In this document: in pieces, positions 38,100-51,125 of the stretch
Position numbering within the stretch: position 1 is the first letter of the stretch
Layout of the letters: the number at the start of each line of letters is the position of its first letter
NCBI GenBank assembly: GCA_024280885.1
Contig: JAJRPF010000008.1
Coordinates: 11,707 to 75,706 of the forward strand
Direction: 5' to 3'
Source of the DNA: Planctomycetota bacterium
GTDB lineage: Bacteria > Planctomycetota > JAJSAM01 > JAJVHW01
Length of the DNA stretch: 64,000 nucleotides
Program-made: the position numbers and the translations under genes
The notes under the pieces: generated by a model
The model's database searches: none
What the model saw: the letters and a program-made list of their open reading frames with translations, nothing else
What the model was told of the DNA's origin: nothing

Positions 38100-39167
38100 C
38101 TACTCGACGGGCAAACGCCGGAAGCCGTCGATCATCGTGCGGAACTCGGGTTCCCAGTCTTCGCGCGCGTTCGCCGCGACCATCGCCTGGAGCACCCAGT
38201 AGTTGCCGTCTTCCTCGAAGAGAACGAGCTGCAGGACGAACATCGCGTCGGATGTGCCCGCATGCGTCGCCGTCGTCGTGATCTCGACGGCTTCCAGACC
38301 GTCCACCCGCAGTTCCTTGACGGCCGAGTCACGCAGGTTGGTCATCTGCGCCGTCGCCGCGAGCCGACGCTTGGCGAAGTTCACGCGCTCGCCCGCTGCG
38401 ATCTTCGAGACCGACGGCGCCACGATCACCAGCGGCGCCCCGGGCTTGCTCTTCCCGAATGTCCCCGGCTCGCAATAGATCGTCCCGACGCGTGTGTGGT
38501 GCCCGATCTCCAGCCGCTTCGCCTTGCCGAGCGCGAAGCGCATCACGTCCGGGTGGCGCGTCTTCGAGATGGTGAGTTCGCGCAGGCATTTTTCCATTGG
38601 CGCGCGCAACGCGTCGGCGTCGGAGACCCGAAACGTCGCCGACATCAACGCCGTCCCATCAGGCACCGGAGCCACCAGGATGAAGCGCTCCATCTCGATG
38701 CCGCGCGCCTCCTGCATCACGCGCAGCAAGAGCGCCGTGCGCGCGCCGATCTTGATGTCCTCGCGCGATACAACCGTCATCCCGCGCGAAGCGAGCTTCT
38801 CGTCGTCTCGCATCCCCGAAACGGTCGCCTCGTAGGGCCCGGGCAACTCGTTCACCAGGATGGAAGCCGAGCGCTTCTCATCCCCGAAGCCCGAGTACCG
38901 TTCCGCCTTCACAAACCCCGCGGGCGGCACCAACGCCACGTGCGTCCCCGGCACGGGGATGCGCTTCGCTGCGATCGGCGGCTTCTGCGACGAGGGCGAC
39001 GGCGTCCCCGCGACCGGTGTGGGCGGTGCCGCCTCGTCCTGTGCCTGAGCGGACGGTGTGCCGACGAGCCCGAGCACTCCGACGAGGAGCGCAGCCCTCG
39101 CCGTCGCCAGCCAACCCTGCGCGAGCCGACCGGATCGGGAGTTCGAGTGTGTGGAGTAGGACCTCAT
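38100..39167 (-). CDS. secreted hypothetical protein
   Basis: Start MRSYSTHSNSRSGRLAQGWLATARAALLVGVLGLVGTPSAQA (residue 58 of the track ORF). Pro-rich linker. No SD seen. Confidence 0.55.
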   Translation of the reverse strand: MRSYSTHSNSRSGRLAQGWLATARAALLVGVLGLVGTPSAQAQDEAAPPTPVAGTPSPSSQKPPIAAKRIPVPGTHVALVPPAGFVKAERYSGFGDEKRSASILVNELPGPYEATVSGMRDDEKLASRGMTVVSREDIKIGARTALLLRVMQEARGIEMERFILVAPVPDGTALMSATFRVSDADALRAPMEKCLRELTISKTRHPDVMRFALGKAKRLEIGHHTRVGTIYCEPGTFGKSKPGAPLVIVAPSVSKIAAGERVNFAKRRLAATAQMTNLRDSAVKELRVDGLEAVEITTTATHAGTSDAMFVLQLVLFEEDGNYWVLQAMVAANAREDWEPEFRTMIDGFRRLPVE

Positions 39168-39382
39168 GTAGCGCACTCTGCGGGATAGCGCCGCGCTGTC
39201 AAAGCGCCGGCCGGGAGCCGAGGCCGGCCGCACATCACCGCGAGTGCGCCCGGCGGCCACCTGAACTCTGCCGCGTGAGATGTGCCCCGAGTCACTGTAG
39301 GCTTTCCGTCGGCGCGCGAATGGCGGCGGTCGGTCCACCGCGAGTGCCGCGCCGCGGATTGGAACCAGGAGGAGGTGGGGTG

Positions 39383-40651
39383 ATGGGAGTGAAGCACAGG
39401 ATCCGGACGAGCATGGTCGCGCTCGGTCTGCTTGTCAGCGCGAGTGCTCCAGCGTTCGCGCACGAGTACTTCGTCGACGGCAACGAGGTCGATCTCGCGC
39501 CGCCGTTCTTCACGGTCCGCGAGATCGTGCTGGAGCGCGGCAAGAGTGTCCGGATCGAGGTGCGCGACGCGGGGACCTGCAAGGCTCGGATCCAGATGAC
39601 GGGTGACTCCTCGGGTCTCCAGGTGAAGAACGGAGACTCGAAGACAGCGAAGGTGTCGCACACGATCACCGTCACGGCCAAGGAGTCGGGCACGTTCACC
39701 GCGGAGATCTCCGTCAAAGGAGAAGGCACGGACAAGAACGGCAGCCCGTGCACCGAGGACTCCGTCAACCGCTTCCTCTTCAAGGTCTCGGCGCCGACCA
39801 AGACGCTTGTGAAGGAGTTCAGCAAGGGCTGGAAGGGGTTCGGGAAGACCTTCAAGATGGAGTTGTCCGGGCACCGCTCGTTCGTCTCCGAGGTCACGAA
39901 GGACTGCCTGCGCAACTTCCAATCTGGTTCTGCCGATGGCGAGACTGCGCTATGGGGGATGTACGGCGCGTGGACGATCGCGCTCAACGAGACGTATATG
40001 TCGGGCTCTCGCGCTCTCACAGGATACCGCGACTTCGGCTCCGACATCCTCTCGCGCGGCCAAGTCCCCGAGGGCTGCCCTCCGCGCTCGTTCGACGACG
40101 GCAGTGGCGGCGCCTGGGACTCCGCCCAGACGAACGTCTACTCCGGAACATGCCGACTCGCCGCGGCCCTCCGGAAGTCCGCGACGAAATCGACAGCCAA
40201 GTTCATGAAGATCGGCACGCAGCTCGACGAGAACTGGACGATCAACATCGGATTGCGGCCGTTGCGCGACCCCTCCGTGAGCGCTCCCAGCATCGGCGGA
40301 CGGGCGCCCGAGGGTGACGAGGGCGCCCACGTCACCGTCTTCGGCGGCGTCTCTTACCGCAAAATGGACATGGGCACGAACCAGTACGTCTGGGCCGGCG
40401 GTTACGCCGACCCTGTGCGCGGCGCCTTCGAAGTCATGCTCCGCGACGCCGATGGCGACGTGGCGACGAAGACCGTCACGCCCGGAAGCTCTGGCACATG
40501 GAACGTCCTCTTCGACAAGAGCGACGGCATCGCAGCAGGCTTCTCCTATCGCCTCGGCGTCGGCTACCGATCCGGCGGCCTCGACATCGGTCTCAGCTAT
40601 GACTGGGAGCAGGTCTCCGTACCGAAGATCGCCGTCACGACGCGCTTCTGA
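39383..40651 (+). CDS. secreted hypothetical protein, Lys/Ser/Thr-rich, lower GC than neighbours
   Basis: AGGAGGAGG SD. Signal peptide MGVKHRIRTSMVALGLLVSASAPAFA. Composition differs from the Ala/Arg-rich norm of the window. Confidence 0.55.
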   Translation: MGVKHRIRTSMVALGLLVSASAPAFAHEYFVDGNEVDLAPPFFTVREIVLERGKSVRIEVRDAGTCKARIQMTGDSSGLQVKNGDSKTAKVSHTITVTAKESGTFTAEISVKGEGTDKNGSPCTEDSVNRFLFKVSAPTKTLVKEFSKGWKGFGKTFKMELSGHRSFVSEVTKDCLRNFQSGSADGETALWGMYGAWTIALNETYMSGSRALTGYRDFGSDILSRGQVPEGCPPRSFDDGSGGAWDSAQTNVYSGTCRLAAALRKSATKSTAKFMKIGTQLDENWTINIGLRPLRDPSVSAPSIGGRAPEGDEGAHVTVFGGVSYRKMDMGTNQYVWAGGYADPVRGAFEVMLRDADGDVATKTVTPGSSGTWNVLFDKSDGIAAGFSYRLGVGYRSGGLDIGLSYDWEQVSVPKIAVTTRF

Positions 40652-40799
40652 TCTCCGGCGTCGCCAACGAAGTACCGCCGCTTGCCGCTACCGAGTCACT
40701 CGAGAGGGCGCGTTGCCGAGACGGGCTGGACTCGGGTGCGGGCGTGGCACAGAGGTGCCTGCCCTGGCAGGTGCATTGACGCGACGGAAGGAGGCGGCG

Positions 40800-41012
40800 A
40801 TGAAAATCTGTCCTGATTGCTCCGCCGAGATGGTGGAGGGCTGTCGTCGCGATAAATTCAACGCCATGACGGCCAGTCCGGAGAGCTGGGTGGCGAACGA
40901 GCCCAAGAAGCAGCTCCCGTTCCTTCTTGGTCACAAAGAGCGCCCCATCCCCGTCGTGACGTACGCGTGCGTCGAGTGCGGACGGCTCGTCTCGTACCTG
41001 AAACGCGAGTGA
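40800..41012 (+). CDS. small zinc-ribbon protein (CPDC...CVECG), 70 aa
   Basis: GGAGG SD. Two CxxC pairs. Lower GC. Confidence 0.5.
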   Translation: MKICPDCSAEMVEGCRRDKFNAMTASPESWVANEPKKQLPFLLGHKERPIPVVTYACVECGRLVSYLKRE

Positions 41013-41322
41013 AGCGGGCGGCGTGTTCCGGTGGGCGCTCCACTCCGACCGTGCCCCCGAGACCGCGGGTCACCTCGCCGGAACATCGACGTTCGTCAAC
41101 CCCGACAAGACCCCGGCCAATTGCGGCCATCCGGGGAGGCCCTGAAGCGCGGAGCGACTCCCCGCGCAGGATGGACACCGCGTCTCCGATCGAGACGCCC
41201 ACGTCGCGGCGAAGAGACCGGTGTCGACGTGCCATGCCGCCACCGAGAGTCATCGGACGAGCCGCGGACTCACCCCACAAGTGGGCGGGTCGTCCATGCA
41301 CAAGCGCGGTTGTCGCCGAGCA

Positions 41323-41706
41323 TCAGCCCTCGGAACGGGTCATGAGCCACCCGATACTACCGACCACGCCGACTAGCGGCAGAGAGGCGACACAGCACCA
41401 GAGCGTGCGCCGCAGGGCGTGAAATGGCTCGTCCCAATCGCGACTCCGGAACCACAGTTTCCAACTCGCGAGGATCGAGATCACGCACAGCACAGGTATC
41501 GACTGCATCCAGGTCCAGTACGCCGAGGTGGGGTCGCCCCACGCGCCCGGCACCGGGAAGTACGTCGCGTTCAAGATCGTCACGGGAACGGAGCCCGTGC
41601 CCAGTAGCACACACCCCACCGTGACGCATAACGGAACGGTGATCGGCTGGCGTTCAGGTGACAGGTCCACGGCGTACGATCGCCGATTGCGCTCCTCATA
41701 TGTCAT
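41323..41706 (-). CDS. small membrane protein (3 TM)
   Basis: Hydrophobic segments. Its start codon lies inside repeat R1. Confidence 0.4.
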   Translation of the reverse strand: MTYEERNRRSYAVDLSPERQPITVPLCVTVGCVLLGTGSVPVTILNATYFPVPGAWGDPTSAYWTWMQSIPVLCVISILASWKLWFRSRDWDEPFHALRRTLWCCVASLPLVGVVGSIGWLMTRSEG

Positions 41707-41926
41707 ACCGAGTCAGGCTCAATTCGTCGGATTGAACGCTCCGCACCTTGCCAGGCTCGTCGCCCTCCCGAGCGGAGTTCAACGCACGTTGCCCCGGCGA
41801 CGCTCGTCCGCGTGTAGAGTCCTGAGCGACGTTGAGAGGCGCAACGAGGTGGTCGACAGGCTGGCGACCCTGGTCGAGAGTGGAGAGTTGAGACCGCCGA
41901 AGCGAGCTTGGCACAGCATGCCGAGG
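41697..41926. repeat. dispersed repeat family copy R1 (~230 bp)
   Basis: Starts catatgtcataccgagtcaggctc, ends gttgagaccgccgaagcgagcttggcacagcatgccgag. Homologous over its length to R4 (47450-47700); the 5' ~60 bp also match R3 and R2. Confidence 0.6.
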
Positions 41927-41967
41927 CGTGCGCCGCAACGACGTGCGTGGGCCGTGGGAGGGCAGCT

Positions 41968-44517
41968 ATGACCGCAGACCGAGCATCCAGAGCCGTCGTC
42001 TCGCTGGCCGATGTGCCGTTCTCGATGCGGCTGCGCCTGCACCTGATCGCCGGCGTCGCGGTGGCTTTCTTGAGCGTGTACGGGCGCGCGGTCTGCCCGT
42101 TCGTCGCGGGCGTTCAGCTACCGCGACTCGTCGCCGGACTCCTCGCCGTCGCCGCCGCTCAGATCGCGCTGCGGGAAGCGCTCTACCGTCTGGTCCCGCG
42201 GCCCTTCGGCAGGGCGTCTCTCGCGCGCCACGGAATGGTCGTCTCGATCTTCTCGTGGCTGGTGGCCGGAGTCGTCGCCCTCGCCCTTCACATGGCGCTC
42301 TACCCGGACTTCCCGATGGGCAGCCACATCAAGCTGCTGACCGGGTACTGGGCTCTGGGCGGCGGGATCCTCTCGCAGCTCGACTTCGTGCTCCTCGAAC
42401 GCTATCTCCGCAAGCATGGCGCCGTGCACACGGTCGCGGCGCAGAGCGTCGAGCGAATCACGCGCCGGCTCATGGAGAGCTACGTCATCTTCACGATCGT
42501 GCCCGCGCTGATCCTGGTCCTCGTCCTGTTGCGCAACGTCTACGAGGGGCACGCGGGGATGGGCCAAGCGGTGGAAGGGATGTTCGTCGGGGCGGTGTTC
42601 GTCGGTTCCGCGCTCGTGGTCTCTCGGCAGTACGGGCTTGCGCTGCGCGAGGACTGCGACGCCATGCGAAAGGCGGTGCTCGACGTCGCCGAGGGTCGCT
42701 TCGACGTGGATCTCGACAGCTCCCGCCCCGACGAGATCGGCCTCGTCGCGCGGAGCATCTGCGCGATGGGACAGGATCTCGCCGTCCGCGAGAAGCGCGA
42801 GGTCAAACTGCTCCAGATCACGAGCGCGTTCAGCGAACAGTTGCACCTCGACCGGCTGCTACGAGTCATCACGACGGGGGCGACTCAACTCGTCAACGCG
42901 GAGCGCAGCACGCTCTACCTCTACGACGCGCGTCGCGACCAGCTCTGGACCCCCGTGGCGGAGGGGATGAACGGTGAGCCTCTCTATCTCGACAAGAACG
43001 CCGGTCTCGCGGGCGCGACGTTCACGACCCAGGAGGCGATCATCCTGGACGATGTCCGCGCCGACCCGCGGTTCAACGCGGCGACGGATCGCGCGACCGG
43101 TTTCACGACGAAGAGCATGCTGTGTGTGCCGGTCAACTCGAAGGACGGCAAGCACCTCGGCGTGATCCAGGTTCTCAATCGTCGCGACGGCGCGTTCGGG
43201 CCGCGCGACGAGAGTCGCCTGCGGGCCATGGCGTCGCAATCCGCGACGGCGATCGAGAACGCCCAGCTCTTCGAGGACGTGCTGAACCTGAAGAACTACG
43301 CCGAGAGTATTCTGCGCAGTCTTTCCAACGGTGTGATCTCGCTCGACCGCGATCTGAACGTGACGACACTCAACGAGGCGGCCGAACGGATTCTTGGTTG
43401 CACCGAAAGCGACGTCGCGGAGCAGCCCGCGAGCGCGTTGTTCCACACCGAGAACGAGTGGGTGATGGACAGCGCACGCACCGTCATGAGCAGCGGCGTC
43501 GCCGATCACACCCTCGACGTCGAACTCGTGATCGACGCGGACCGGAAGGCCTCCGTCAACCTCACCGCCGTGCCCCTGATCGACGCGAGCGACGAGCCGA
43601 TTGGCCAGCTCCTCATCATGGAGGACCTGTCGGCGGAGAAACGGACGCGCGCCACGATGTCGCGCTACATGCCCAAGGAGGTCGTGGAACAGGTGCTCTC
43701 CGGGCATCGAGACGTGATCGAGGGCCGCATGCAGCAGATGACACTGCTGTTCACGGACATCCGCAGTTTCACGACGATCTCCGAGGCCATCGGACCACGA
43801 GCAACCGTTGCCATGCTGAACGAGTACTTCGAGGGGATGGTCGATGTCGTCCACGACCACGGCGGCATCCTCGACAAGTACATCGGCGACGCGATCATGG
43901 CTCTCTTCGGCGTGCCGCTCGGAGGAGAGCACGACGAGCGCGATGCCGTCGCAGCCGCCAACGACATGATGCGCGCGCTCGCAGCGATCAACGCACGTCG
44001 GGAAGCGGCAGGCCTCGAACCCATCATGCACGGGATCGGCGTGTCCACGGGCGAGGCCGTCGCCGGCAACATCGGTTCGCCGCGACGGATGGACTACACG
44101 GTGATTGGCGACTCGGTGAATCTGACGGCGCGCATCGAGAGCATCACGAAGTTCTACAAGGCGCCCGTGCTCGTCAGCGAGATGACCGTCAAGCTGCTGG
44201 ATGCGCCCGAGTACTTGCGCGAGGTGGACTGCATCCGCGTCAAGGGCAAGTCGGATCCAGTCACAATTTTCGAGAGTTTCGAGTACCGCGCGGACCGGCT
44301 CACGGACGAACTCCTGCAGGCCTACGAGATCGAGACGACGGCGCTCGCGGCGTACCGCACGCAGAACTGGGCTGACGCGGAGCGCCTCTTCCAACAGGCG
44401 CAGGTGCTCGCGCCGGCCGACCGGATTCCCGAGATCTACCTCGAGCGGATCGCCCACTATCAAAGCGCGCCGCCGGGCCCCGACTGGGACGGCGTCTGGA
44501 CGATGCTCTCGAAGTGA
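41968..44517 (+). CDS. membrane-anchored multi-sensor class III adenylate/guanylate cyclase (TM + HAMP + GAF + PAS + CHD)
   Basis: GGGAGG 7 nt upstream. Start placed downstream of repeat R1. GAF region NAERSTLYLYD...CVPVNSKDGKHLGVIQVLN. Cyclase motifs LLFTDIRSFT and KYIGDAIMALFG. Confidence 0.85.
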   Translation: MTADRASRAVVSLADVPFSMRLRLHLIAGVAVAFLSVYGRAVCPFVAGVQLPRLVAGLLAVAAAQIALREALYRLVPRPFGRASLARHGMVVSIFSWLVAGVVALALHMALYPDFPMGSHIKLLTGYWALGGGILSQLDFVLLERYLRKHGAVHTVAAQSVERITRRLMESYVIFTIVPALILVLVLLRNVYEGHAGMGQAVEGMFVGAVFVGSALVVSRQYGLALREDCDAMRKAVLDVAEGRFDVDLDSSRPDEIGLVARSICAMGQDLAVREKREVKLLQITSAFSEQLHLDRLLRVITTGATQLVNAERSTLYLYDARRDQLWTPVAEGMNGEPLYLDKNAGLAGATFTTQEAIILDDVRADPRFNAATDRATGFTTKSMLCVPVNSKDGKHLGVIQVLNRRDGAFGPRDESRLRAMASQSATAIENAQLFEDVLNLKNYAESILRSLSNGVISLDRDLNVTTLNEAAERILGCTESDVAEQPASALFHTENEWVMDSARTVMSSGVADHTLDVELVIDADRKASVNLTAVPLIDASDEPIGQLLIMEDLSAEKRTRATMSRYMPKEVVEQVLSGHRDVIEGRMQQMTLLFTDIRSFTTISEAIGPRATVAMLNEYFEGMVDVVHDHGGILDKYIGDAIMALFGVPLGGEHDERDAVAAANDMMRALAAINARREAAGLEPIMHGIGVSTGEAVAGNIGSPRRMDYTVIGDSVNLTARIESITKFYKAPVLVSEMTVKLLDAPEYLREVDCIRVKGKSDPVTIFESFEYRADRLTDELLQAYEIETTALAAYRTQNWADAERLFQQAQVLAPADRIPEIYLERIAHYQSAPPGPDWDGVWTMLSK

Positions 44518-44554
44518 CGAGCCGCTTCAGACGCGCGCTTCGCATGCGCGGAGA

Positions 44555-45469
44555 CTACTGACCGCCGGCGTTCAAGCGACCCACGTCGATCTCCTCTTGC
44601 CCCTCCCAGGCGAACGCGCCATGGATGCGAGAGCGTTCCAAGGTGCCGGAGAGCATGTACGTACGGCCGCGTTCGAGCCACTCGGTCGAGATCCGACCCA
44701 AGTGGTCGGTCGTCCGCTCGCCATGCGGCAACTGGGCGCCGTCTGTGACGTCATGAATGCGGACGCTCAGCCCCGACAACGGCTGCTCGCGTAAGCTGAG
44801 AACGACGGTGTCGCCGTTCGCCAACCGGGGTAGAGCGACGTTCGTATCCGACGCCGTTCGCCCCAACTCGAGCGATGCGCGGAGCGGACGACGTCCGGGG
44901 ATGAGTGCCAGAATGACGAGCCGCACGTGGCTCGCAGGGTGCGCCTCCAGGGAACCACCGGAAACCCCGATGCGATGCTCGAACCAGCCGTCGGCGTCGG
45001 TCGTGACGCGTCGGTTTGCGATGAACGTCGCCTTGTGCTCCAAAGGCGAATGCGAGTAGACGGTCGCCCCCCGATTGCGAGCGCTATCGGCAGAGATATC
45101 CTCCTCCACGCGCACGCTCTGAAAGCGAACCGACACTCCGGCGATGGGCTCACCTCGCTCGTCGACGATGCGACCTCGGCCCCAGAGTCCGGCAATATCG
45201 ACGTGGGTGCGGTCCTTCCGCCTGACGGTCGGAGTCGGTGGCTGCACGTGTCGCCGACTCCGCAGTCGCGAGTCGACCCCGGTCGGCTCGGGGTCCGCGC
45301 CTGCCGTCTCCGGGCTGACGCCGTGGGCGGAAGGAGGCCGCCCCGCAGGAACGCGCGGTTCGCCGTCGAAGTCGGCATCGAACGAACTCAGAACACGTGG
45401 CACACCGGCGACAACCGCCGCCAGCAGAGCAAGCACCACAACTCCGAGGGCGATCCTCCGTCTCGTCAT
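44555..45469 (-). CDS. signal-anchored hypothetical protein with a carboxypeptidase-regulatory-like domain
   Basis: MTRRRIALGVVVLALLAAVVAG TM segment. GRIVDERGEPIAGVSVRF. Confidence 0.5.
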   Translation of the reverse strand: MTRRRIALGVVVLALLAAVVAGVPRVLSSFDADFDGEPRVPAGRPPSAHGVSPETAGADPEPTGVDSRLRSRRHVQPPTPTVRRKDRTHVDIAGLWGRGRIVDERGEPIAGVSVRFQSVRVEEDISADSARNRGATVYSHSPLEHKATFIANRRVTTDADGWFEHRIGVSGGSLEAHPASHVRLVILALIPGRRPLRASLELGRTASDTNVALPRLANGDTVVLSLREQPLSGLSVRIHDVTDGAQLPHGERTTDHLGRISTEWLERGRTYMLSGTLERSRIHGAFAWEGQEEIDVGRLNAGGQ

Positions 45470-45566
45470 GGCGTAATCCTAGCCGAGCAGCGGGAGGGCT
45501 CTCGCGATCGGACTACCCAACGGCTCGACTGCACTCCGGATTCGCGACCGCGTGTCAACCGCGTGC

Positions 45567-45660
45567 GTCATGCCAAGCCAGGCTCGTCCGCCCGCTCCGC
45601 GAAGTGACCGTCGGAGCGCCCGAAGGTCCCACGCCATGAAGACGCCATCTACGAGACGCG
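45567..45660. repeat. dispersed repeat family copy R2 (partial, ~95 bp)
   Basis: gtcatgccaagccaggctcgtccgcccgctccgcgaagtgaccg...cccacgccatg aligns with the 5' part of R3. Confidence 0.5.
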
Positions 45661-45890
45661 GGCCGGTTCGATGCTCTGTAGCTCGGCTGCGTGGTCGGAA
45701 CGAAGAGCTCTCCATAGGTCCACCGCCTGCTGGAGATTCAGCCAGAATGCCGGCTCTGTCCCGGTGAAACGTGCCAGCCGCTAGGCTGTGCCCGGATTGC
45801 CCGAGCGCTTGCAGAAGACGCGACAACTACCCTGACACCGGGGGCGCGCTGCCACCGTCCTGGGTTGAGGTCGGCGACGAGCACGTGGCA

Positions 45891-46301
45891 CTAAGCGAAG
45901 TCCGCGAGTCGGCGGAGGATCGCGGTCAGCGCGCCGGCGTGGCGGGCGGACCGAAGCGTGCCTTCGCAGAAGCGCTCCTTGCGCACGTAGGTGGTGATCA
46001 GCTTGCGCAGCGTGTCGATCGTTGCGGCGTGTAGGGCCGACGGGTCTTTGTGCAGCCGCTGCGCCTCGTCTTGCCACGCGGGCCAGTCGAAATCGTAGAC
46101 CCATTTGTGTGCGTACGCGCGTTCCACGAATTCGTTCTCGACGCGGTCCGAGAGCATGTGCGGCAGCGTGAGCACTCCGTCGTCTCCCGGCGGTGGTTCG
46201 TGCCACCGGTCGGTCGTGGGGCTCGCCATCTCCGGGAGGAGTTCGGCCAGTGCGGCGATAGCCTCGGGACGGGGCGTCCAGTCAGGTTCCTTCTGCGTCA
46301 T
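45891..46301 (-). CDS. hypothetical protein
   Basis: 136 aa with normal composition (Trp-rich WVYDFDWPAWQDEAQ). Starts 27 bp from R3. Confidence 0.5.
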   Translation of the reverse strand: MTQKEPDWTPRPEAIAALAELLPEMASPTTDRWHEPPPGDDGVLTLPHMLSDRVENEFVERAYAHKWVYDFDWPAWQDEAQRLHKDPSALHAATIDTLRKLITTYVRKERFCEGTLRSARHAGALTAILRRLADFA

Positions 46302-46327
46302 CGAGTGATGCTACGTGTCAGACCGCG

Positions 46328-46500
46328 CCATGTCATACCGAGCCAGACTCAACTCGTCGGTTTGGACACTCCGCTTCTCGTCAGGCTCGTCGGCCCGCTG
46401 CGCGAAGTGCCCGCTGGAAGCCGCGATCGTCCCGCACCATGACGACCCGTCTGGCGCGCCTCGCGCACGCCGGGTGACGCGGGCTACCCCGTGTGCTTTC
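46328..46500. repeat. dispersed repeat family copy R3 (~170 bp)
   Basis: ccatgtcataccgagccagactcaactcgtcgg...gtcaggctcgtcggcccgctgcgcgaagtgcccgctggaagccgcgatcgtcccgcaccatg. The 5' part matches R1; the central part matches R4. Confidence 0.6.
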
Positions 46501-46591
46501 TCCGCCTCGTACCACCGTTGGTAGCCTCAGAAGCGGTTCGGACGAGCCACTCCTGATGTCACATAGTGGCAGTTTGTGATACACTCCGGAG

Positions 46592-46888
46592 ATGGCAACG
46601 CGCACCTCCCTGAACGTCTCGCTGAGCCCCGAACTCGCGGGCTACGTTCGCTCCTGCGTCGAGTCCGGCAACTACCTCACCGCGAGCGAAGTCGTGCGGG
46701 AGTCGTTGCGACTCCTGCAGCAGCAGCACGCCGAGGGTCGCCTGGTCATCGAAGAGGTTCGCGAAAGGGTCGAGGCCGCGTACCGCGCCTCACTGGAAGA
46801 CGAGATCGTGGACAGCGACGTCGTCCTTCAGCGTGTTCGTCTCAGCCTGGAGGCACGGAGGGAAACGCAGACACTGCCACCCGGGTGA
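46592..46888 (+). CDS. parD: type II antitoxin, ParD family
   Basis: MATRTSLNVSLSPELAGYVRSCVESGNYLTASEVVRESLRLL. GGAG SD. Confidence 0.8.
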   Translation: MATRTSLNVSLSPELAGYVRSCVESGNYLTASEVVRESLRLLQQQHAEGRLVIEEVRERVEAAYRASLEDEIVDSDVVLQRVRLSLEARRETQTLPPG

Positions 46889-47187
46889 GTCGCGCTCGGC
46901 TTTCATCGCTCGCCGCACGCGAGTTCGTGCGCTGCGTGGATCGGATCGCGGACGCCAATGCCGACGCTGCGTTGGCCTGGGTAGATGCTGTTGAGGCCGC
47001 GCTCGCGCGCATCGCGTCATTCCCCGCATTGGGTCATCGGCGAGAGGATCTGACGGAAAGAGAGATCCGCTTCTATCGCGTCTCGTCTCACCTGCTCGTG
47101 TACCGCACGGACACAGATCCACCGATCGTCATCGACATCATCCACTCCGCTCGCGACGTCTCGGCGCGACTGCGGGCAACGGAGTGA
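46885..47187 (+). CDS. parE: type II toxin, ParE/RelE family
   Basis: GTGA overlap with the parD stop. C-terminus EIRFYRVSSHLLVYRTDTDPPIVIDIIHSARD is typical ParE. The first 103 codons of the track ORF are a spurious extension. Confidence 0.75.
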   Translation: MSRARLSSLAAREFVRCVDRIADANADAALAWVDAVEAALARIASFPALGHRREDLTEREIRFYRVSSHLLVYRTDTDPPIVIDIIHSARDVSARLRATE

Positions 47188-47449
47188 CGCCGGAACGCCC
47201 ACAACTGCGACGTCGGGCGACGGACGCCACCCGGGTGCGGGCCAGCGCCTCATGGGCAACGGGCGGGAGTCTGCCGAGAGGGGCTCCGCCGACGGGAGGT
47301 CACGTTCATCGTCGCGACGAAGCGCGGGGCGAGCGCCGCGCACCAGCGCGACGCAACCCCGGACTATCTCCCGCCGCCACCGCACGTTGAGCTTGGCCCG
47401 GGCGTGATTTGGCACCGCAGATGCCAGATTGGGGCGCAAAGTGGCAGTG

Positions 47450-47700
47450 CCATATCGAGTCAGGCTCGTCGGCTCGCTCCGCGAGGGCCCGCTGGAAGCC
47501 GCGACCGCCCCGCGCCATGGCAACGCGTCTCACGCGCCCTCGCGAGTGGCGTGCGACGCGTGTTGCCCCAGCGACCCCCGTCCACGAGTAGAGTCTTGGG
47601 CGCCGTCGCGAGCCGCGACGGCGCGGTTGACAGGCTGAGGAACTTGGTCGAAATTGGCGTGTTGAGACCGACGAATCGAGCCCGGCGCAGAATGCCGATG
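47450..47700. repeat. dispersed repeat family copy R4 (~250 bp), ending at the stop codon of 47703-48185
   Basis: ccatatcgagtcaggctcgtcgg...cccgctggaagccgcgaccgccccgcgccatgg...gttgacaggctgaggaacttggtcgaaattggcgtgttgagaccgacgaatcgagcccggcgcagaatgccgatg. Confidence 0.6.
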
Positions 47701-47702
47701 TC

Positions 47703-48185
47703 CTAGTCCGAGACGCTCAGGTGCAGGATGAACCGGCCCTTCGGTCCTTCGAAGGCGAGCTCATCCCACGCGCACGCGTAGAAGGAGCTCTCAGTCCTCA
47801 CGTGCACGATCCAGACGCTCGTGGCGCACGTGGCGGCTGCAATGCGTTCCAACAACCGGTCGATGATGCGCTCGCGCCCGCGGTCATTGCTGACCTCGAA
47901 GTCCGAGTTCGTGTCGTCCAGTCTGGGCCCGTGCGGGTCCTGGAACTCGAACAGCCAGCGTTCGAACATGGACTTTGCCGCTCGCCCCGCGTCATCTACC
48001 GGTTCGACCGTTACGCGCGCGGCCTTGTCGCGGACCCAGAGCTTGATTGCATCGACGATTGAGCCGTCCGGTGAAAGTCGGTCGATCTCGAACGTGTACC
48101 CGTGGTTCGTCTTGCCGTTCAGATCCGCGAACGCCTCCAGGTATCCGCGCAACTCGCCGAACCTCACGTCTGCGTCTGATGTCAT
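47703..48185 (-). CDS. hypothetical protein
   Basis: 160 aa, acidic, no domain recognised. Confidence 0.5.
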   Translation of the reverse strand: MTSDADVRFGELRGYLEAFADLNGKTNHGYTFEIDRLSPDGSIVDAIKLWVRDKAARVTVEPVDDAGRAAKSMFERWLFEFQDPHGPRLDDTNSDFEVSNDRGRERIIDRLLERIAAATCATSVWIVHVRTESSFYACAWDELAFEGPKGRFILHLSVSD

Positions 48186-48453
48186 CGGGCTCCTCGTTGG
48201 TCGTGGCTCCGGTCCATCACATCGCGCGGGGCTCGATTCGGCAATTCGAGCGCTCTACTCTCGACCAGGCCTGTCGGCGAGTCAACCGCCTCGTCGCGGT
48301 TCGTCAATCGCGTCGAAGTGGCACCACCAATACGCGGCAGCCCGTCGTGAATGTCACCGCGACCGTGTGCGAGCCGTCTGCCGTCACGACGCACCAGCGC
48401 TCGACGCGACCGAGGCTCACGAACGGCTGGATGCTGACGCGCAGATCGCGGAG

Positions 48454-50412
48454 TCAGTAGTACTGATAGTGCGGGCTGGTGAGGAGGGCTAGGGCGGCGG
48501 TGCGCCAGGTGGAGCCGGGGTCGGCCAGGATTGTGAGGAAGGCGGAGAGTTCGTCGGGGGTGGGGTCGCGGCCGAGGAAGCGGCGGAAGACTTCGGTGAC
48601 CTGGGCGCCGGTGACGGAGCCGGAGTCGCTGGTTTGGCCGGAGGCGGCGGCGTCGGCGGTGCGGAGGGGGAGGACGGCGCCGGAGTCGAGCATCACCTTG
48701 GCGAGGACGCCGCGGAGGGGGGCCGGGTCGGTGAGGGCCTGGAGCGCGTTGCGCATGTTGCGGAACTCCTGGAGCGCCGGGGCGCGGCCGAGGAGGTCGA
48801 CGAAGAGGCCGCGGATGAACTGGTGGTCGTCCTTTGCGCGGGCGGGGCGGTCGGGGCTGGTGTAGCGCTCCGAGGTGAGCCATTCGCGTATGAGGGGCTT
48901 GAGTTCGCCGGCGTCGAGGGCGAGGCGACCGGCGGCGCGCGCGTGCTCTTCGTCGGGAAGGGCCTGGCCGAGGTAGCGGACTTCCATGCGCCGCGTGAAC
49001 TGGTCGACGTAGTCGGGCTGGGAGAGGGCGATCTTGACGACGTCGCTCTGGTTCTTGCCGAGGGTCTTGAAGATGCGCGTCTTCTCGCCGTCGTACATGC
49101 GCTTGGCTTCCTTGAGCAGCTTGAGTTCGCTCTGGACCTCGATGCCGAGGAACTGCTCGAGGATGACGGTGACGTACGTGTCGTTGCCGGGGTTGCGCGA
49201 GTTGAATTCGGCGGAGAGGGCGAAGTCGCGGTGCGCGTCGAAGAACGTGGCGTCACCATCGCGCATCTTCCGCGGCACCTCGGCGAGTCGATCGCTGACG
49301 GGGCGAAAGCGGTCGATCAGGAGGAAGAAGAACGCCTCTTCGTTGAACCAATGCTCCCAGGCTTCGAGTGAGCCGAGGAGTTGATCGACGCGCGCCGGAA
49401 AGGGCTTCGCCGCGATGCGTGCGAGTTCCTCGTCGGTGGGGCTGCGTCCGAGGACGTCGAAGTAGAGGGCGCGGGTGAGACGGCGATCGGCGCTGGGGAT
49501 GCGTTCGACGCGCGCGACGGTGTCGCCGTCGCCTTCCGTGCGTTCGGTCGGACGCACAGCGGCGAAGCGCACGAGCACGGGCCATCCGGAGAGTTTCGCG
49601 TCGCGCGGTCGGCAGCGCAGCAGCCACGGCCCGTCGCGATCGGGCGCGAGTGTCGTCTTCGCGCCGTGCTTCGTGGAGAGGCGCGCCTCCGCCCCGAGCG
49701 GCGCCTCGACGATCTCCCACTCGATACTGACGTCGTCTCCGTCGGGGTCGAATGAGAGCGACGCGTCGAATGTGATCTCGGTCCCACGTGTGACGTTCTG
49801 CTGCCAGGGCGCGAGTACCGCGACGGGCGGCTTCTGTCTCTTCGTCGCGCCGAATACCCACTGAACGAGCGGACCCTTCGGATCGAGGAGCGCTGCGTCG
49901 AAGTCGCTGCCGTCGGCCTTCCCTCCGTCGTGGTCGATGCCGCCGTTCGCGAGGGGGACGAGCTTGAGCAGGAGCAGGCTGCGTTCGGGGGCGGGCGCGT
50001 GGACGAGGCCGGTGACGTTCTCGTAGTTGGCCTGAACGATCGCCTCGTCCCACGTGCCGTCGACTTCGGGTGGGAGGAGGCGGTGCTTCGAACGATTGTC
50101 GGGATCGCCCGCGTCGTGGCAACCGATGCACTCGCGTTCGAGGATCGGCAGGACCTCGTCGCGGAAGAGCTGCGGATCGTGGACGACGTCACGACGCATC
50201 GCGCCGCCGTTCATGGGGTCGGGCGACATCGGGTCGGGCGACATCTTGTCCTGCGCGAAGAGGACAGTCGGGATCAGCACGGCCAGAGTGACGGCCGAGC
50301 TTGTGGCGAGGAGGATGCGCAATGAGATCACGGTCACGATCCTACCGCCGCGCGGTGAGTGTGCGACGCCTCGCTTGTGCGCCAGCCTCGGGAGACCGCG
50401 TGCGCTGGCCAC
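48454..50412 (-). CDS. PSCyt1 (planctomycete-type cytochrome c) + DUF1549 + DUF1553 protein
   Basis: LPILERECIGCHDAGDPDNRSKHRLL haem-binding CxxCH, DUF1549-like RRLTRALYFDVLGRSPTDEELARI. True start may be the internal GTG near 50326, which has GGTAGGA upstream and begins a signal peptide ISLRILLATSSAVTLAVLIPTVLFAQD. Confidence 0.75.
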   Translation of the reverse strand: MASARGLPRLAHKRGVAHSPRGGRIVTVISLRILLATSSAVTLAVLIPTVLFAQDKMSPDPMSPDPMNGGAMRRDVVHDPQLFRDEVLPILERECIGCHDAGDPDNRSKHRLLPPEVDGTWDEAIVQANYENVTGLVHAPAPERSLLLLKLVPLANGGIDHDGGKADGSDFDAALLDPKGPLVQWVFGATKRQKPPVAVLAPWQQNVTRGTEITFDASLSFDPDGDDVSIEWEIVEAPLGAEARLSTKHGAKTTLAPDRDGPWLLRCRPRDAKLSGWPVLVRFAAVRPTERTEGDGDTVARVERIPSADRRLTRALYFDVLGRSPTDEELARIAAKPFPARVDQLLGSLEAWEHWFNEEAFFFLLIDRFRPVSDRLAEVPRKMRDGDATFFDAHRDFALSAEFNSRNPGNDTYVTVILEQFLGIEVQSELKLLKEAKRMYDGEKTRIFKTLGKNQSDVVKIALSQPDYVDQFTRRMEVRYLGQALPDEEHARAAGRLALDAGELKPLIREWLTSERYTSPDRPARAKDDHQFIRGLFVDLLGRAPALQEFRNMRNALQALTDPAPLRGVLAKVMLDSGAVLPLRTADAAASGQTSDSGSVTGAQVTEVFRRFLGRDPTPDELSAFLTILADPGSTWRTAALALLTSPHYQYY

Positions 50413-50475
50413 GAATGGGAAGAGGCGGGAGGTCCACCTGGAACCTCCCGCCTCGAGAAATGCTGACGAGGTCAG

Positions 50476-51012
50476 CTACTTCTTCTTGCGTGCAGTCTTC
50501 TTCGCAGCCTTCTTCTTCGCAGGCTTGCGTGTCGCCTTCTTAGCAGCCTTCTTCTTGGCAGGCTTGCGCGTTGCCTTCTTGGCTGCCTTCTTCTTGGCGG
50601 GCTTGCGCGTCGCCTTCTTAGCAGCCTTCTTCTTGGCAGGCTTACGCGTTGCCTTCTTGGCTGCCTTCTTCTTCTTGGCGGGCTTACGCGTCGCCTTCTT
50701 AGCGGCCTTCTTCTTGGCAGGCTTGCGCGTTGCCTTCTTGGCTGCCTTCTTCTTGGCGGGCTTGCGCGTCGCCTTCTTAGCAGCCTTCTTCTTGGCAGGC
50801 TTGCGCGTTGCCTTCTTGGCTGCCTTCTTCTTCTTGGCGGGCTTACGCGTCGCCTTCTTAGCAGCCTTCTTCTTGGCAGGCTTGCGCGTTGCCTTCTTGG
50901 CTGCTTTCTTCTTCTTGGCGGGCTTGCGCGTCGCCTTCTTCGCAGCCTTCTTCTTAGCCGGCTTGCGGGTCGCCTTCTTGGCGGCCTTCTTTGCTGCCTT
51001 CTTCGCGGCCAT
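50476..51012 (-). CDS. histone H1-like / AlgP-like Lys-Ala tandem-repeat DNA-binding protein
   Basis: About 12 tandem KKATRKPAKKK(K)AA units with 39/42-bp DNA periodicity. AGGAGG 6 nt upstream of the ATG. Confidence 0.8.
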   Translation of the reverse strand: MAAKKAAKKAAKKATRKPAKKKAAKKATRKPAKKKKAAKKATRKPAKKKAAKKATRKPAKKKKAAKKATRKPAKKKAAKKATRKPAKKKAAKKATRKPAKKKAAKKATRKPAKKKKAAKKATRKPAKKKAAKKATRKPAKKKAAKKATRKPAKKKAAKKATRKPAKKKAAKKTARKKK

Positions 51013-51125
51013 CTGAAAACCCTCCTGATGGTCGTAATGAAAATGGCGGCACGGCCGCGTGCCGCTCGTTCACTCAGTTCATCGACCGAGCTGACGGCTT
51101 ACTTCGGCAGGGACGCACCGAAACT

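Follow-up and report, generated by a model that had tools for sequence, protein, structure and literature searches.

What are the short repeats that stand between unrelated genes in a variable part of a Planctomycetota chromosome, and could they matter for the genes beside them? The question is raised by a 64-kb stretch (66.7% G+C) of contig JAJRPF010000008.1 from a Planctomycetota bacterium, hereafter the window, in whose coordinates all positions are given unless a relative's contig is named. An earlier note on this DNA had described four same-strand repeats, R1 to R4, and had offered three readings of them, namely a gene-cassette array with recombination sites, a family of miniature transposable elements with inverted repeats (MITEs), or a family of promoter-leaders. 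As laid out below, the repeats form one non-coding family with inverted ends, they are clustered in a hotspot whose gene content turns over rapidly between strains, and homology between strains breaks on their edges in three places. We tentatively explain them as a lineage-specific, composite MITE-like/BOX-like element that was joined by its ends to unrelated genes and whose ends may act as portable expression modules, a reading to which we give a little less than an even chance.

The similarity among R1 to R4 is real and lies far above chance. In blastn comparisons on the plus strand, R1 and R4 were 77% identical over 164 nt (E 2e-32), R3 and R4 80% over 112 nt (E 1e-22), R1 and R3 80% over 79 nt (E 4e-15), and R2 and R3 78% over 65 nt (E 2e-10), which bears out all four same-strand repeats where they had been placed. 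They follow one another on one strand at spacings of 3.9, 0.8 and 1.1 kb, a geometry that by itself says nothing about attC identity. The copies are assembled from three blocks. Block A (~60 nt) is present in full in R1 and R3 and in a short form, A', in R2 and R4, the short form being block A minus a 42-nt segment that is bounded by a CAGRCTC direct repeat. Block B (~95 nt) occurs in R2, R3 and R4, is absent from R1 and is nowhere found in tandem, and block C (~170 nt) is carried by R1 and R4. A relationship that had been overlooked in the earlier note is that block A matches the final ~60 nt of block C when these are read as the reverse complement (nhmmer E 1.3e-5 to 4e-3); on the opposite strand, the block C profile matches 46395-46331 (E 1.3e-5) and 41764-41702 (E 2.8e-5). 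R1 and R4 are thus complete elements with imperfect inverted ends of ~60 nt, and a complete element measures ~220-250 bp (about 230 bp). A matching insertion sequence (IS) would be expected to have ends that begin GTCATACCGAG....

A fifth copy, R5, had likewise escaped notice. It is 80% identical to positions 1715-1800 of L049, the contig of a close relative, and the rest of the intergenic region in which it lies is not homologous to the repeats (z ≤ 1.1 in shuffle controls). We had also considered R5 and the L049 copy as full-length elements (69% identity over 250-300 nt), and dropped this because their left part gave z ≤ 1.1 in shuffle tests. Identity among the copies ranges from 69 to 80%, with 77% for R1 and R4, 80% for R5 and the L049 copy, and 70-72% for pairs of different type. 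On this anatomy, the family comprises two complete and three partial, diverged copies of one ~220-250 bp element. All five copies lie within 6.5 kb, with none in the other 57 kb of the window (P ~5e-4 for clustering).

The inner parts of the element come and go. The 42-nt segment of block A (46349-46390) is present in R3 of the window and absent from the orthologous copy in L049 (about 97-120), and block B has C(T/C)C(C/G)CGAG-like motifs on both sides, as seen where R4 has the block (47473-47550) and R1 lacks it (41757-41778). Since both inner blocks are edged by short direct repeats, their gain or loss probably proceeded by slippage.

The repeats are non-coding, as had seemed likely in the earlier note from their want of a conserved frame. 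Mismatches in gapless pairs of R1 and R4 do not favour any codon phase (12/12/13, p=0.97), and reading frames are shifted where indels occur. Long open frames do span R1 and R4. The open reading frame (ORF) across R4, however, was without a Pfam match, and a search of 1.8 billion representative proteins brought up no real homologue, returning just one irrelevant repetitive protein. The substitutions are of mixed type (20 transitions, 17 transversions). We also considered the template and variable repeats of a diversity-generating retroelement and rejected them, there being no adenine-specific mismatch pattern and no reverse transcriptase having been found in the window.

The repeats lie in a region that differs from strain to strain. 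We compared the window with close relatives (contigs L049, L050, L051 and L057, from assemblies ERZ27262698, SRR8439430, ERZ23491265 and ERZ27227324) and with more distant ones (L053-L056). In their common parts, L049/L050 and L051 are 89-96% identical to the window; they carry orthologues of R2 and R3, and their gene content differs. L049 is without window positions 41059-45566, which hold the 127-aa gene, R1, the cyclase gene and the 304-aa gene, and has an unrelated 161-aa gene instead; where the window has a deletion, L049 carries in addition a 314-aa gene, an isolated block C core (1715-1815), what is left of higB (nine codons) and an intact higA. The breakpoint between this arrangement and that of the window and L051 is exactly the outer end of R2 (GTCATGCC...). 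In L057, a higBA module with 91% identity has its own promoter, a near full-length higB and no repeats. Homology between L057 and L049 begins right after the block C terminus, inside higB, and ends at the higA stop codon, that is, at the inner edge of R2, which in the window abuts the stop codon of the higA remnant. Three homology breakpoints thus fall on repeat edges, two of them at the outer and inner edges of R2 and one, within higB, where block C ends.

In the more distant relatives (77-82% DNA identity) both flanking core genes are kept and homology ends exactly at the stop codon of the 652-aa gene (~48450), but the hotspot versions of these four contigs contain neither the present repeats nor any repeat family of their own. 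The family is therefore confined to the narrow lineage of the window. The cargo of the distant relatives is different again: L054 (2072-3013) and L056 (5051-5992) have a 79-aa gene together with a 230-aa gene encoding a RelA_SpoT domain, a pair that looks like a small-alarmone-synthetase toxin-antitoxin module, and L056 also has a methyltransferase gene; L055 (4214-6432) has an AAA_21 ATPase gene (438 aa) with a 301-aa gene, a pair that resembles a defence system. The differing cargo identifies 39.3-48.45 kb as a fast-turnover hotspot, and it may be a place where toxin-antitoxin and defence modules land in general. The view of this part of the window as an accessory, variable segment has accordingly held up, as cargo differs between the window, L049 and L053-L056 and some breakpoints lie exactly on repeat edges. 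Both outcomes that the earlier note had named as contrary to its own reading, a conserved frame and an identical arrangement in all relatives, were looked for, and we found a frame that is not conserved and an arrangement that varies.

The ends of the element have a property of their own with respect to the neighbouring genes. Read outward, they finish in ...CTCGGYATGAC, a motif confined to repeat ends, and gene starts are faced by seven of the nine ends. R1, which had been said to overlap the start codon of the 127-aa gene, contains that codon, the terminal ATG of its block A end. Three further ends open a short outward ORF from the terminal ATG (or, for R5, from the repeat end) that runs into the start of the neighbouring gene with an ATGA overlap (Table 1), and the arrangement at R3 and the DUF6508 gene is kept in L049. 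The outward ORF of the A' end of R2 stops 12 nt short of the start of the 304-aa gene, and neither end of R4 faces a gene start. An ATGAC start is found in five of five abutting genes versus 1 of 36 called genes in the relatives (Fisher p=8e-6, post hoc), and an ATGA start in five of five versus 13 of 42 (p=0.006, post hoc).

Block C carries what may be a second kind of signal. In an alignment of four block C cores, two hexamers, TTGAC(A/T)...GA(G/A)A(G/T)T, stand at a fixed spacing of 17 nt, with CTGGTC directly before the second hexamer and the remaining spacer variable. By its sequence, the conserved hexamer pair looks promoter-like. A block C core is located upstream of three unrelated genes or modules, namely the cyclase gene, the 160-aa gene and, in L049, higBA. 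As a separate observation, R4 has a perfect hairpin just upstream of its TTGACA box (47600-47624, GCGCCGTCGCG-AGC-CGCGACGGCGC, with an 11-bp stem and a 3-nt loop). In the other copies the same hairpin has 4-5 bp only, with one compensatory change (CGTTG/CAACG in R1, CGTCG/CGACG in R4).

Table 1. Positions in the window of the repeat copies, their outward ORFs and promoter-like boxes, and the genes of the hotspot.
Feature	Position	Strand	Remarks
R1	41702-41922	+	Complete, A+C without B; occupies a divergent intergenic gap
R1 arms	left 41702-41764, right ~41865-41922	+	Block A versus reverse complement of block C end, E 2.8e-5
R2	45567-45650	+	Left-part copy, short A' + B
R3	46332-46500	+	Left-part copy, long A + B + start of mid-C; truncated before parDE
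R4	47449-47696	+	Complete, A'+B+C; between convergent parE and 160-aa gene
R5	48212-48316 (approx.)	-	Inverted part-copy with only the core of block C; immediately upstream of 160-aa gene
R1-C outward ORF	41918-41971	+	17 codons from terminal ATG; TGA overlaps cyclase ATG at 41968 (ATGA)
R3-A outward ORF	46298-46336	-	12 codons from terminal ATG; ATGA overlap with DUF6508 gene start at 46301
R5 outward ORF	48182-48217	-	11 codons from R5 end; ATGA overlap with 160-aa gene start at 48185
Promoter-like box, R1 C core	41853-41881	+	TCGACA-N17-GAGAGT
Promoter-like box, R4	47627-47655	+	TTGACA-N17-GAAATT
Promoter-like box, R5	48257-48285	-	TTGACT-N17-GAGAGT
Hotspot	39339-48453		Strain-variable, ~9 kb; flanking core genes 38100-39338 (-) and 48454-50412 (-)
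127-aa membrane-like gene	41323-41706	-	Start is terminal ATG of R1-A
Adenylate/guanylate cyclase gene	41968-44517	+	MASE10-HAMP-GAF-PAS; cargo absent from L049
304-aa gene	44555-45469	-	No confident family; replaced in L049 by unrelated 161-aa gene
higA-like HTH antitoxin gene	45648-45812	-	3' remnant; intact in L049, L051 and L057
DUF6508 gene	45891-46301	-	
parD; parE	46592-46888; 46885-47187	+	Toxin-antitoxin module
160-aa gene	47703-48185	-	No family assigned; bracketed by inverted C cores of R4 and R5

These features can be brought together as follows. The element, or halves of it, would have been joined to unrelated genes by end-specific events, either through transposition by an enzyme encoded elsewhere or through end-directed recombination, and each end would then serve as a portable expression module. 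From the end of block C would come the TTGAC-N17-GAGAGT box, ~35 nt of leader and an ATG, and this terminal ATG would either become the start codon of the neighbour or open a short ORF whose stop codon overlaps the neighbour's start (ATGA), so that newly placed cargo would gain signals for both transcription and translation. On this reading, the repeat marks the junctions of modules and probably supplies expression signals. The copies differ from each other by 20-30%, whereas the hotspot turns over at a strain divergence of 4-10%, and this suggests that they came with cargo from a wider pool and not by duplication in place.

Several observations weigh against this explanation. Of the roughly six junctions between the window and L049, only one falls on an element end, the others (39227/40786, 41058, 45812/45871) being away from repeats. 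The ATGAC and ATGA patterns were spotted post hoc, and a Shine-Dalgarno sequence of its own is present in two of the genes that abut the ends. The match to the -10 consensus is weak, and the promoter-like boxes fell below the threshold of a consensus scan. Compared with shuffled sequences, hairpin stability is modest (z = -1.86 for R1, z = -1.2 for R4). Around the ends of R1 and R5 (±4 nt) a search for target-site duplications of 4-9 bp was negative, and the ends of R4 gave a mere 4-nt match at chance level; such duplications could have eroded, because the copies are old (69-80% identity). No integrase or transposase was detected by Pfam in the ORFs tested across the 64 kb, a screen of the window ORFs from which a few short ones were left out; the ORFs that we chose match the gene calls of the source exactly. 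An integrase is thus not visible here, as had been stated before. Further, all known copies sit in one hotspot, the scan covering the 64-kb window and the contigs of the relatives, so that dispersal over the genome is unproven, and no further copies turned up in exact-pattern scans of genome, metagenome and viral collections, nor in the protein search with the translated ORF across R4. Since these scans used exact patterns (185,579 species genomes, JGI metagenomes and viral contigs), diverged copies could have escaped them. The genome scan with CAGGCTCGTCNNCNCGCTNCGCGA returned 35 single matches, in unrelated high-GC taxa and limited to the pattern itself, and the metagenome scan with a block C pattern returned 13; we regard both sets as chance. 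Two scans of viral collections returned nothing, nor did blastn against plasmids.

The same ends might have arisen without any mobility. A promoter-leader of ~100 nt (promoter, leader and ATG) could have been duplicated locally and copied before unrelated genes by recombination in the hotspot, in which case what look like inverted ends in R1 and R4 would be no more than a pair of leaders lying head to head where genes diverge. Such an origin fits with every copy being local, with the failure to find a target-site duplication or a transposase, with R5 and the L049 copy as stand-alone block C cores directly upstream of genes, and with the large share of ends (seven of nine) that face a gene start. 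It fits poorly with the end that is joined to the interior of higB instead of to a gene start and with R4, where no end faces one; no promoter role is obvious for block B or for the A' forms, copy identity is under the criterion of at least 80% applied to putative mobile promoters (PMC3488235), and the 20-30% divergence of the copies again contrasts with the 4-10% of the strains. We hold local duplication to be unlikely, though worth keeping in view.

Breakpoints exactly on repeat edges would equally be produced if modules had been integrated one after another by a site-specific recombinase encoded elsewhere and the repeats were its sites or scars, as hybrid direct repeats of a cassette-like kind distinct from an integron. 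The modular part-copies are what hybrid att sites would be expected to look like, four same-orientation copies punctuate the modules, and the cargo, made up of toxin-antitoxin and small genes, varies between strains. Nevertheless, R5 is inverted, most strain junctions are off the repeats, no common core beyond ATGAC is seen at the junctions, no recombinase was found in the 64 kb, and other lineages use the hotspot without any such repeats, all of which makes serial integration decidedly unlikely in our opinion. A more novel reading would turn the repeat into a platform for gene capture in Planctomycetota, either independent of an integrase or dependent on a recombinase acting in trans. The repeat would then be both the joining site of cargo, with the ATGAC common to the element ends and all five abutting gene starts as the joining core, and an expression adaptor composed of the promoter box, the leader and the terminal ATG (as start codon or through ATGA coupling). 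We consider this improbable.

The long hairpin into which R1 folds, and the long open frames across R1 and R4, might point to a structured non-coding RNA or cis-regulatory leader family, or else to decayed fragments of one duplicated gene. Both versions are very improbable. For the first, the repeats had no Rfam match at the gathering score or even at E ≤ 1, the consensus structure that RNAalifold derived from four C cores was weak (-16.9 kcal/mol, 145 columns), and the downstream genes are unrelated; the folding that had been proposed as a check thus yielded the long hairpin in R1, with the modest z-scores given above and without a strong consensus fold. For the second, there are the even mismatch phases, the frame-breaking indels and the lack of a Pfam match or real homologue for the ORF across R4. 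Two specific sources of such fragments were tried and rejected: the cargo genes of the relatives, for which tblastx gave GC-rich noise only, and the 5' region of a decayed higB as the origin of block C, for which, besides the absence of a Pfam match for the R4 ORF, the genuine 5' part and promoter of higB in L057 proved unrelated.

Lastly, a true integron cassette array without an integrase (CALIN), with the repeats as attC sites, can hardly be upheld, for although the repeats are imperfect palindromes on one strand and separated by under 4 kb, the cargo includes parDE and integrons are known in Planctomycetes (PMC4889954), no intI was found in the 64 kb (Pfam, ORFs tested), no copy has an ordered RYYYAAC...GTTRRRY pair on one strand, AAC and GTT occur together in R1 only (at a distance of ~146 nt, with conservation running ~30 nt beyond the pair) and are replaced by GAC, CTC or GTC in the other copies, the elements are 220-250 bp long, the strain breakpoint coincides with the outer terminus instead of a GTT core, and the repeats are at gene 5' ends in mixed orientation, whereas cassettes are mostly single, promoterless ORFs of common orientation with the site at the 3' end, and the cargo here includes some two-gene modules and one 849-aa gene. 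Of the three readings offered in the earlier note, the MITE and promoter-leader ones agree with the anatomy (inverted ends, non-coding nature, ends at gene starts), and the integron one is not supported, the search of all copies for an attC-like core having found no ordered R''/R' pair.

A number of further observations concern the genes of the hotspot and its surroundings. The higBA module is seen in three stages of decay: in L057 (353-973) higB is near full length and frameshifted into higA; L049 (1816-2203) retains the last nine higB codons (HDVEIVDYH*) and an intact higA; and in the window (45648-45812) the 3' fragment of higA is left alone, the toxin gene thus going first. L049 also contains a lone fragment of an end module at 1556-1590 (CGATGCGAATCGGACTCGGAATGAC; weak nhmmer match, E 0.06), 47 nt from the start of the 314-aa gene and separate from the block C core at 1715-1815. 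R4, which had been said to end at a stop codon, ends 7 nt before that of the convergent gene at 47703-48185. One boundary claim of the earlier note needs correction, in that the zinc-ribbon gene (40800-41012) is not beside any repeat. In PADLOC, Pycsar PycC models hit the 849-aa cyclase (E 2e-23) by its class III cyclase domain only; no effector gene lies next to it, and its sensor part (MASE10-HAMP-GAF-PAS) suggests ordinary signalling. PADLOC, PHROGs and NCBIfam gave no match for the small island proteins. A segment of 1.56 kb (39227-40786) is missing from L049, neither of its junctions being at a repeat, and the ORFs at 39292-40047 (-) and 39017-40651 (+) had no match in Pfam, NCBIfam or PHROGs. 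Between the parE stop codon and R4 are 261 nt (47188-47448) of 70-72% G+C, with no convincing gene and no likeness to the repeats; this may be a decayed cargo gene.

Outside the hotspot, the remainder of the window is ordinary chromosome (aminotransferase, ABC transporters, CutA, ATP synthase operon), and the 64 kb contain no tRNA gene and no Rfam match. By the names given to homologues of the right-flank gene, the organism belongs to the Planctomycetota. At 50428-51030, a tandem array with a 39/42-nt period and at least 12 units runs inside a 178-aa ORF (50476-51012, -), in a region of ~58% G+C with an AT skew of -0.77. The repeat-protein gene next to CutA is kept in relatives (L055 1640-2089, L056 2566-3030) with other unit patterns (27/12/15-nt spacings). 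In L056, positions 1-124 and 543-666 form a direct duplication of 124 nt (97%), in and near the gene for the ATP synthase a-subunit and at the contig end, which may be an assembly artefact.

To our knowledge, small interspersed repeats have hardly been described in Planctomycetota, and neither Rfam nor the public collections scanned gave a match for the present family. What sets it apart from a routine repeat is that it is packed into a toxin-antitoxin and defence hotspot, that homology between strains breaks at its edges, and that its ends are aligned with start codons that belong to unrelated genes. Should the outward signals function, the locus would be a compact example of how new genes come to be expressed in a chromosomal hotspot that has no integron; otherwise it would be an ordinary decaying repeat family in a variable region.

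How, then, does the element compare with known systems? attC sites have R'' and R' cores (RYYYAAC...GTTRRRY) with the AAC and GTT triplets at the base of a palindrome, and their terminal structure, of 20-100 nt, varies (PMC4889954). With attC sites, and with CALIN arrays, our element shares the imperfect palindromic, one-strand repeats in a strain-variable array of small genes and toxin-antitoxin modules with no integrase nearby, but it lacks R/L box cores, does not conserve AAC/GTT, has twice the usual attC length and is placed 5' of genes. Repetitive extragenic palindromic (REP) sequences are hairpins of 20-40 bp with GTAG or CGTC tags and a high copy number (PMC3733652). Like REP/REPIN sequences with their RAYT transposases, the repeats of the window are palindromic, extragenic and possibly mobilised by an enzyme encoded elsewhere; unlike them, the element is ~230 bp long, and no short tagged hairpin unit was found in it. 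Putative mobile promoters are conserved stretches of 50-100 nt with at least 80% identity upstream of coding sequences that are not homologous, and families of low copy number may arise by recombination (PMC3488235). The homologous stretch of ~100 nt directly upstream of the cyclase gene, the 160-aa gene and higBA is reminiscent of them, although its identity is below the 80% threshold, its promoter is a predicted one, and an inverted second end and inner blocks are present in addition.

The resemblance is closer to MITEs such as Correia elements, RUP and Nezha, which are likewise small, non-coding and intergenic, with terminal inverted repeats, both orientations and truncated copies, and as with MITEs one end here disrupts a gene (higB in L049). 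On the other hand, no target-site duplications, matching IS or transposase were seen in the window, the element is not AT-rich, and its copies are unusually diverged (69-80%) and unusually clustered, with genome dispersal unproven. Pneumococcal BOX elements consist of boxA, a variable boxB and boxC, and their end modules pair; boxA and boxC are reported to have a stimulating effect on genes downstream, and an ORF that leads out of the element can begin at a start codon within boxC (PMC3049150). BOX elements are dispersed in more than 100 copies per genome, as opposed to five copies in one 9-kb hotspot here, block B is never in tandem in the present family, and the host is GC-rich; across phyla, no sequence relationship is to be expected. 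By analogy of design and not by homology, however, a composite non-coding intergenic repeat with pairing A and C ends, an optional B block and outward terminal ATGs makes the BOX design the closest match to our element.

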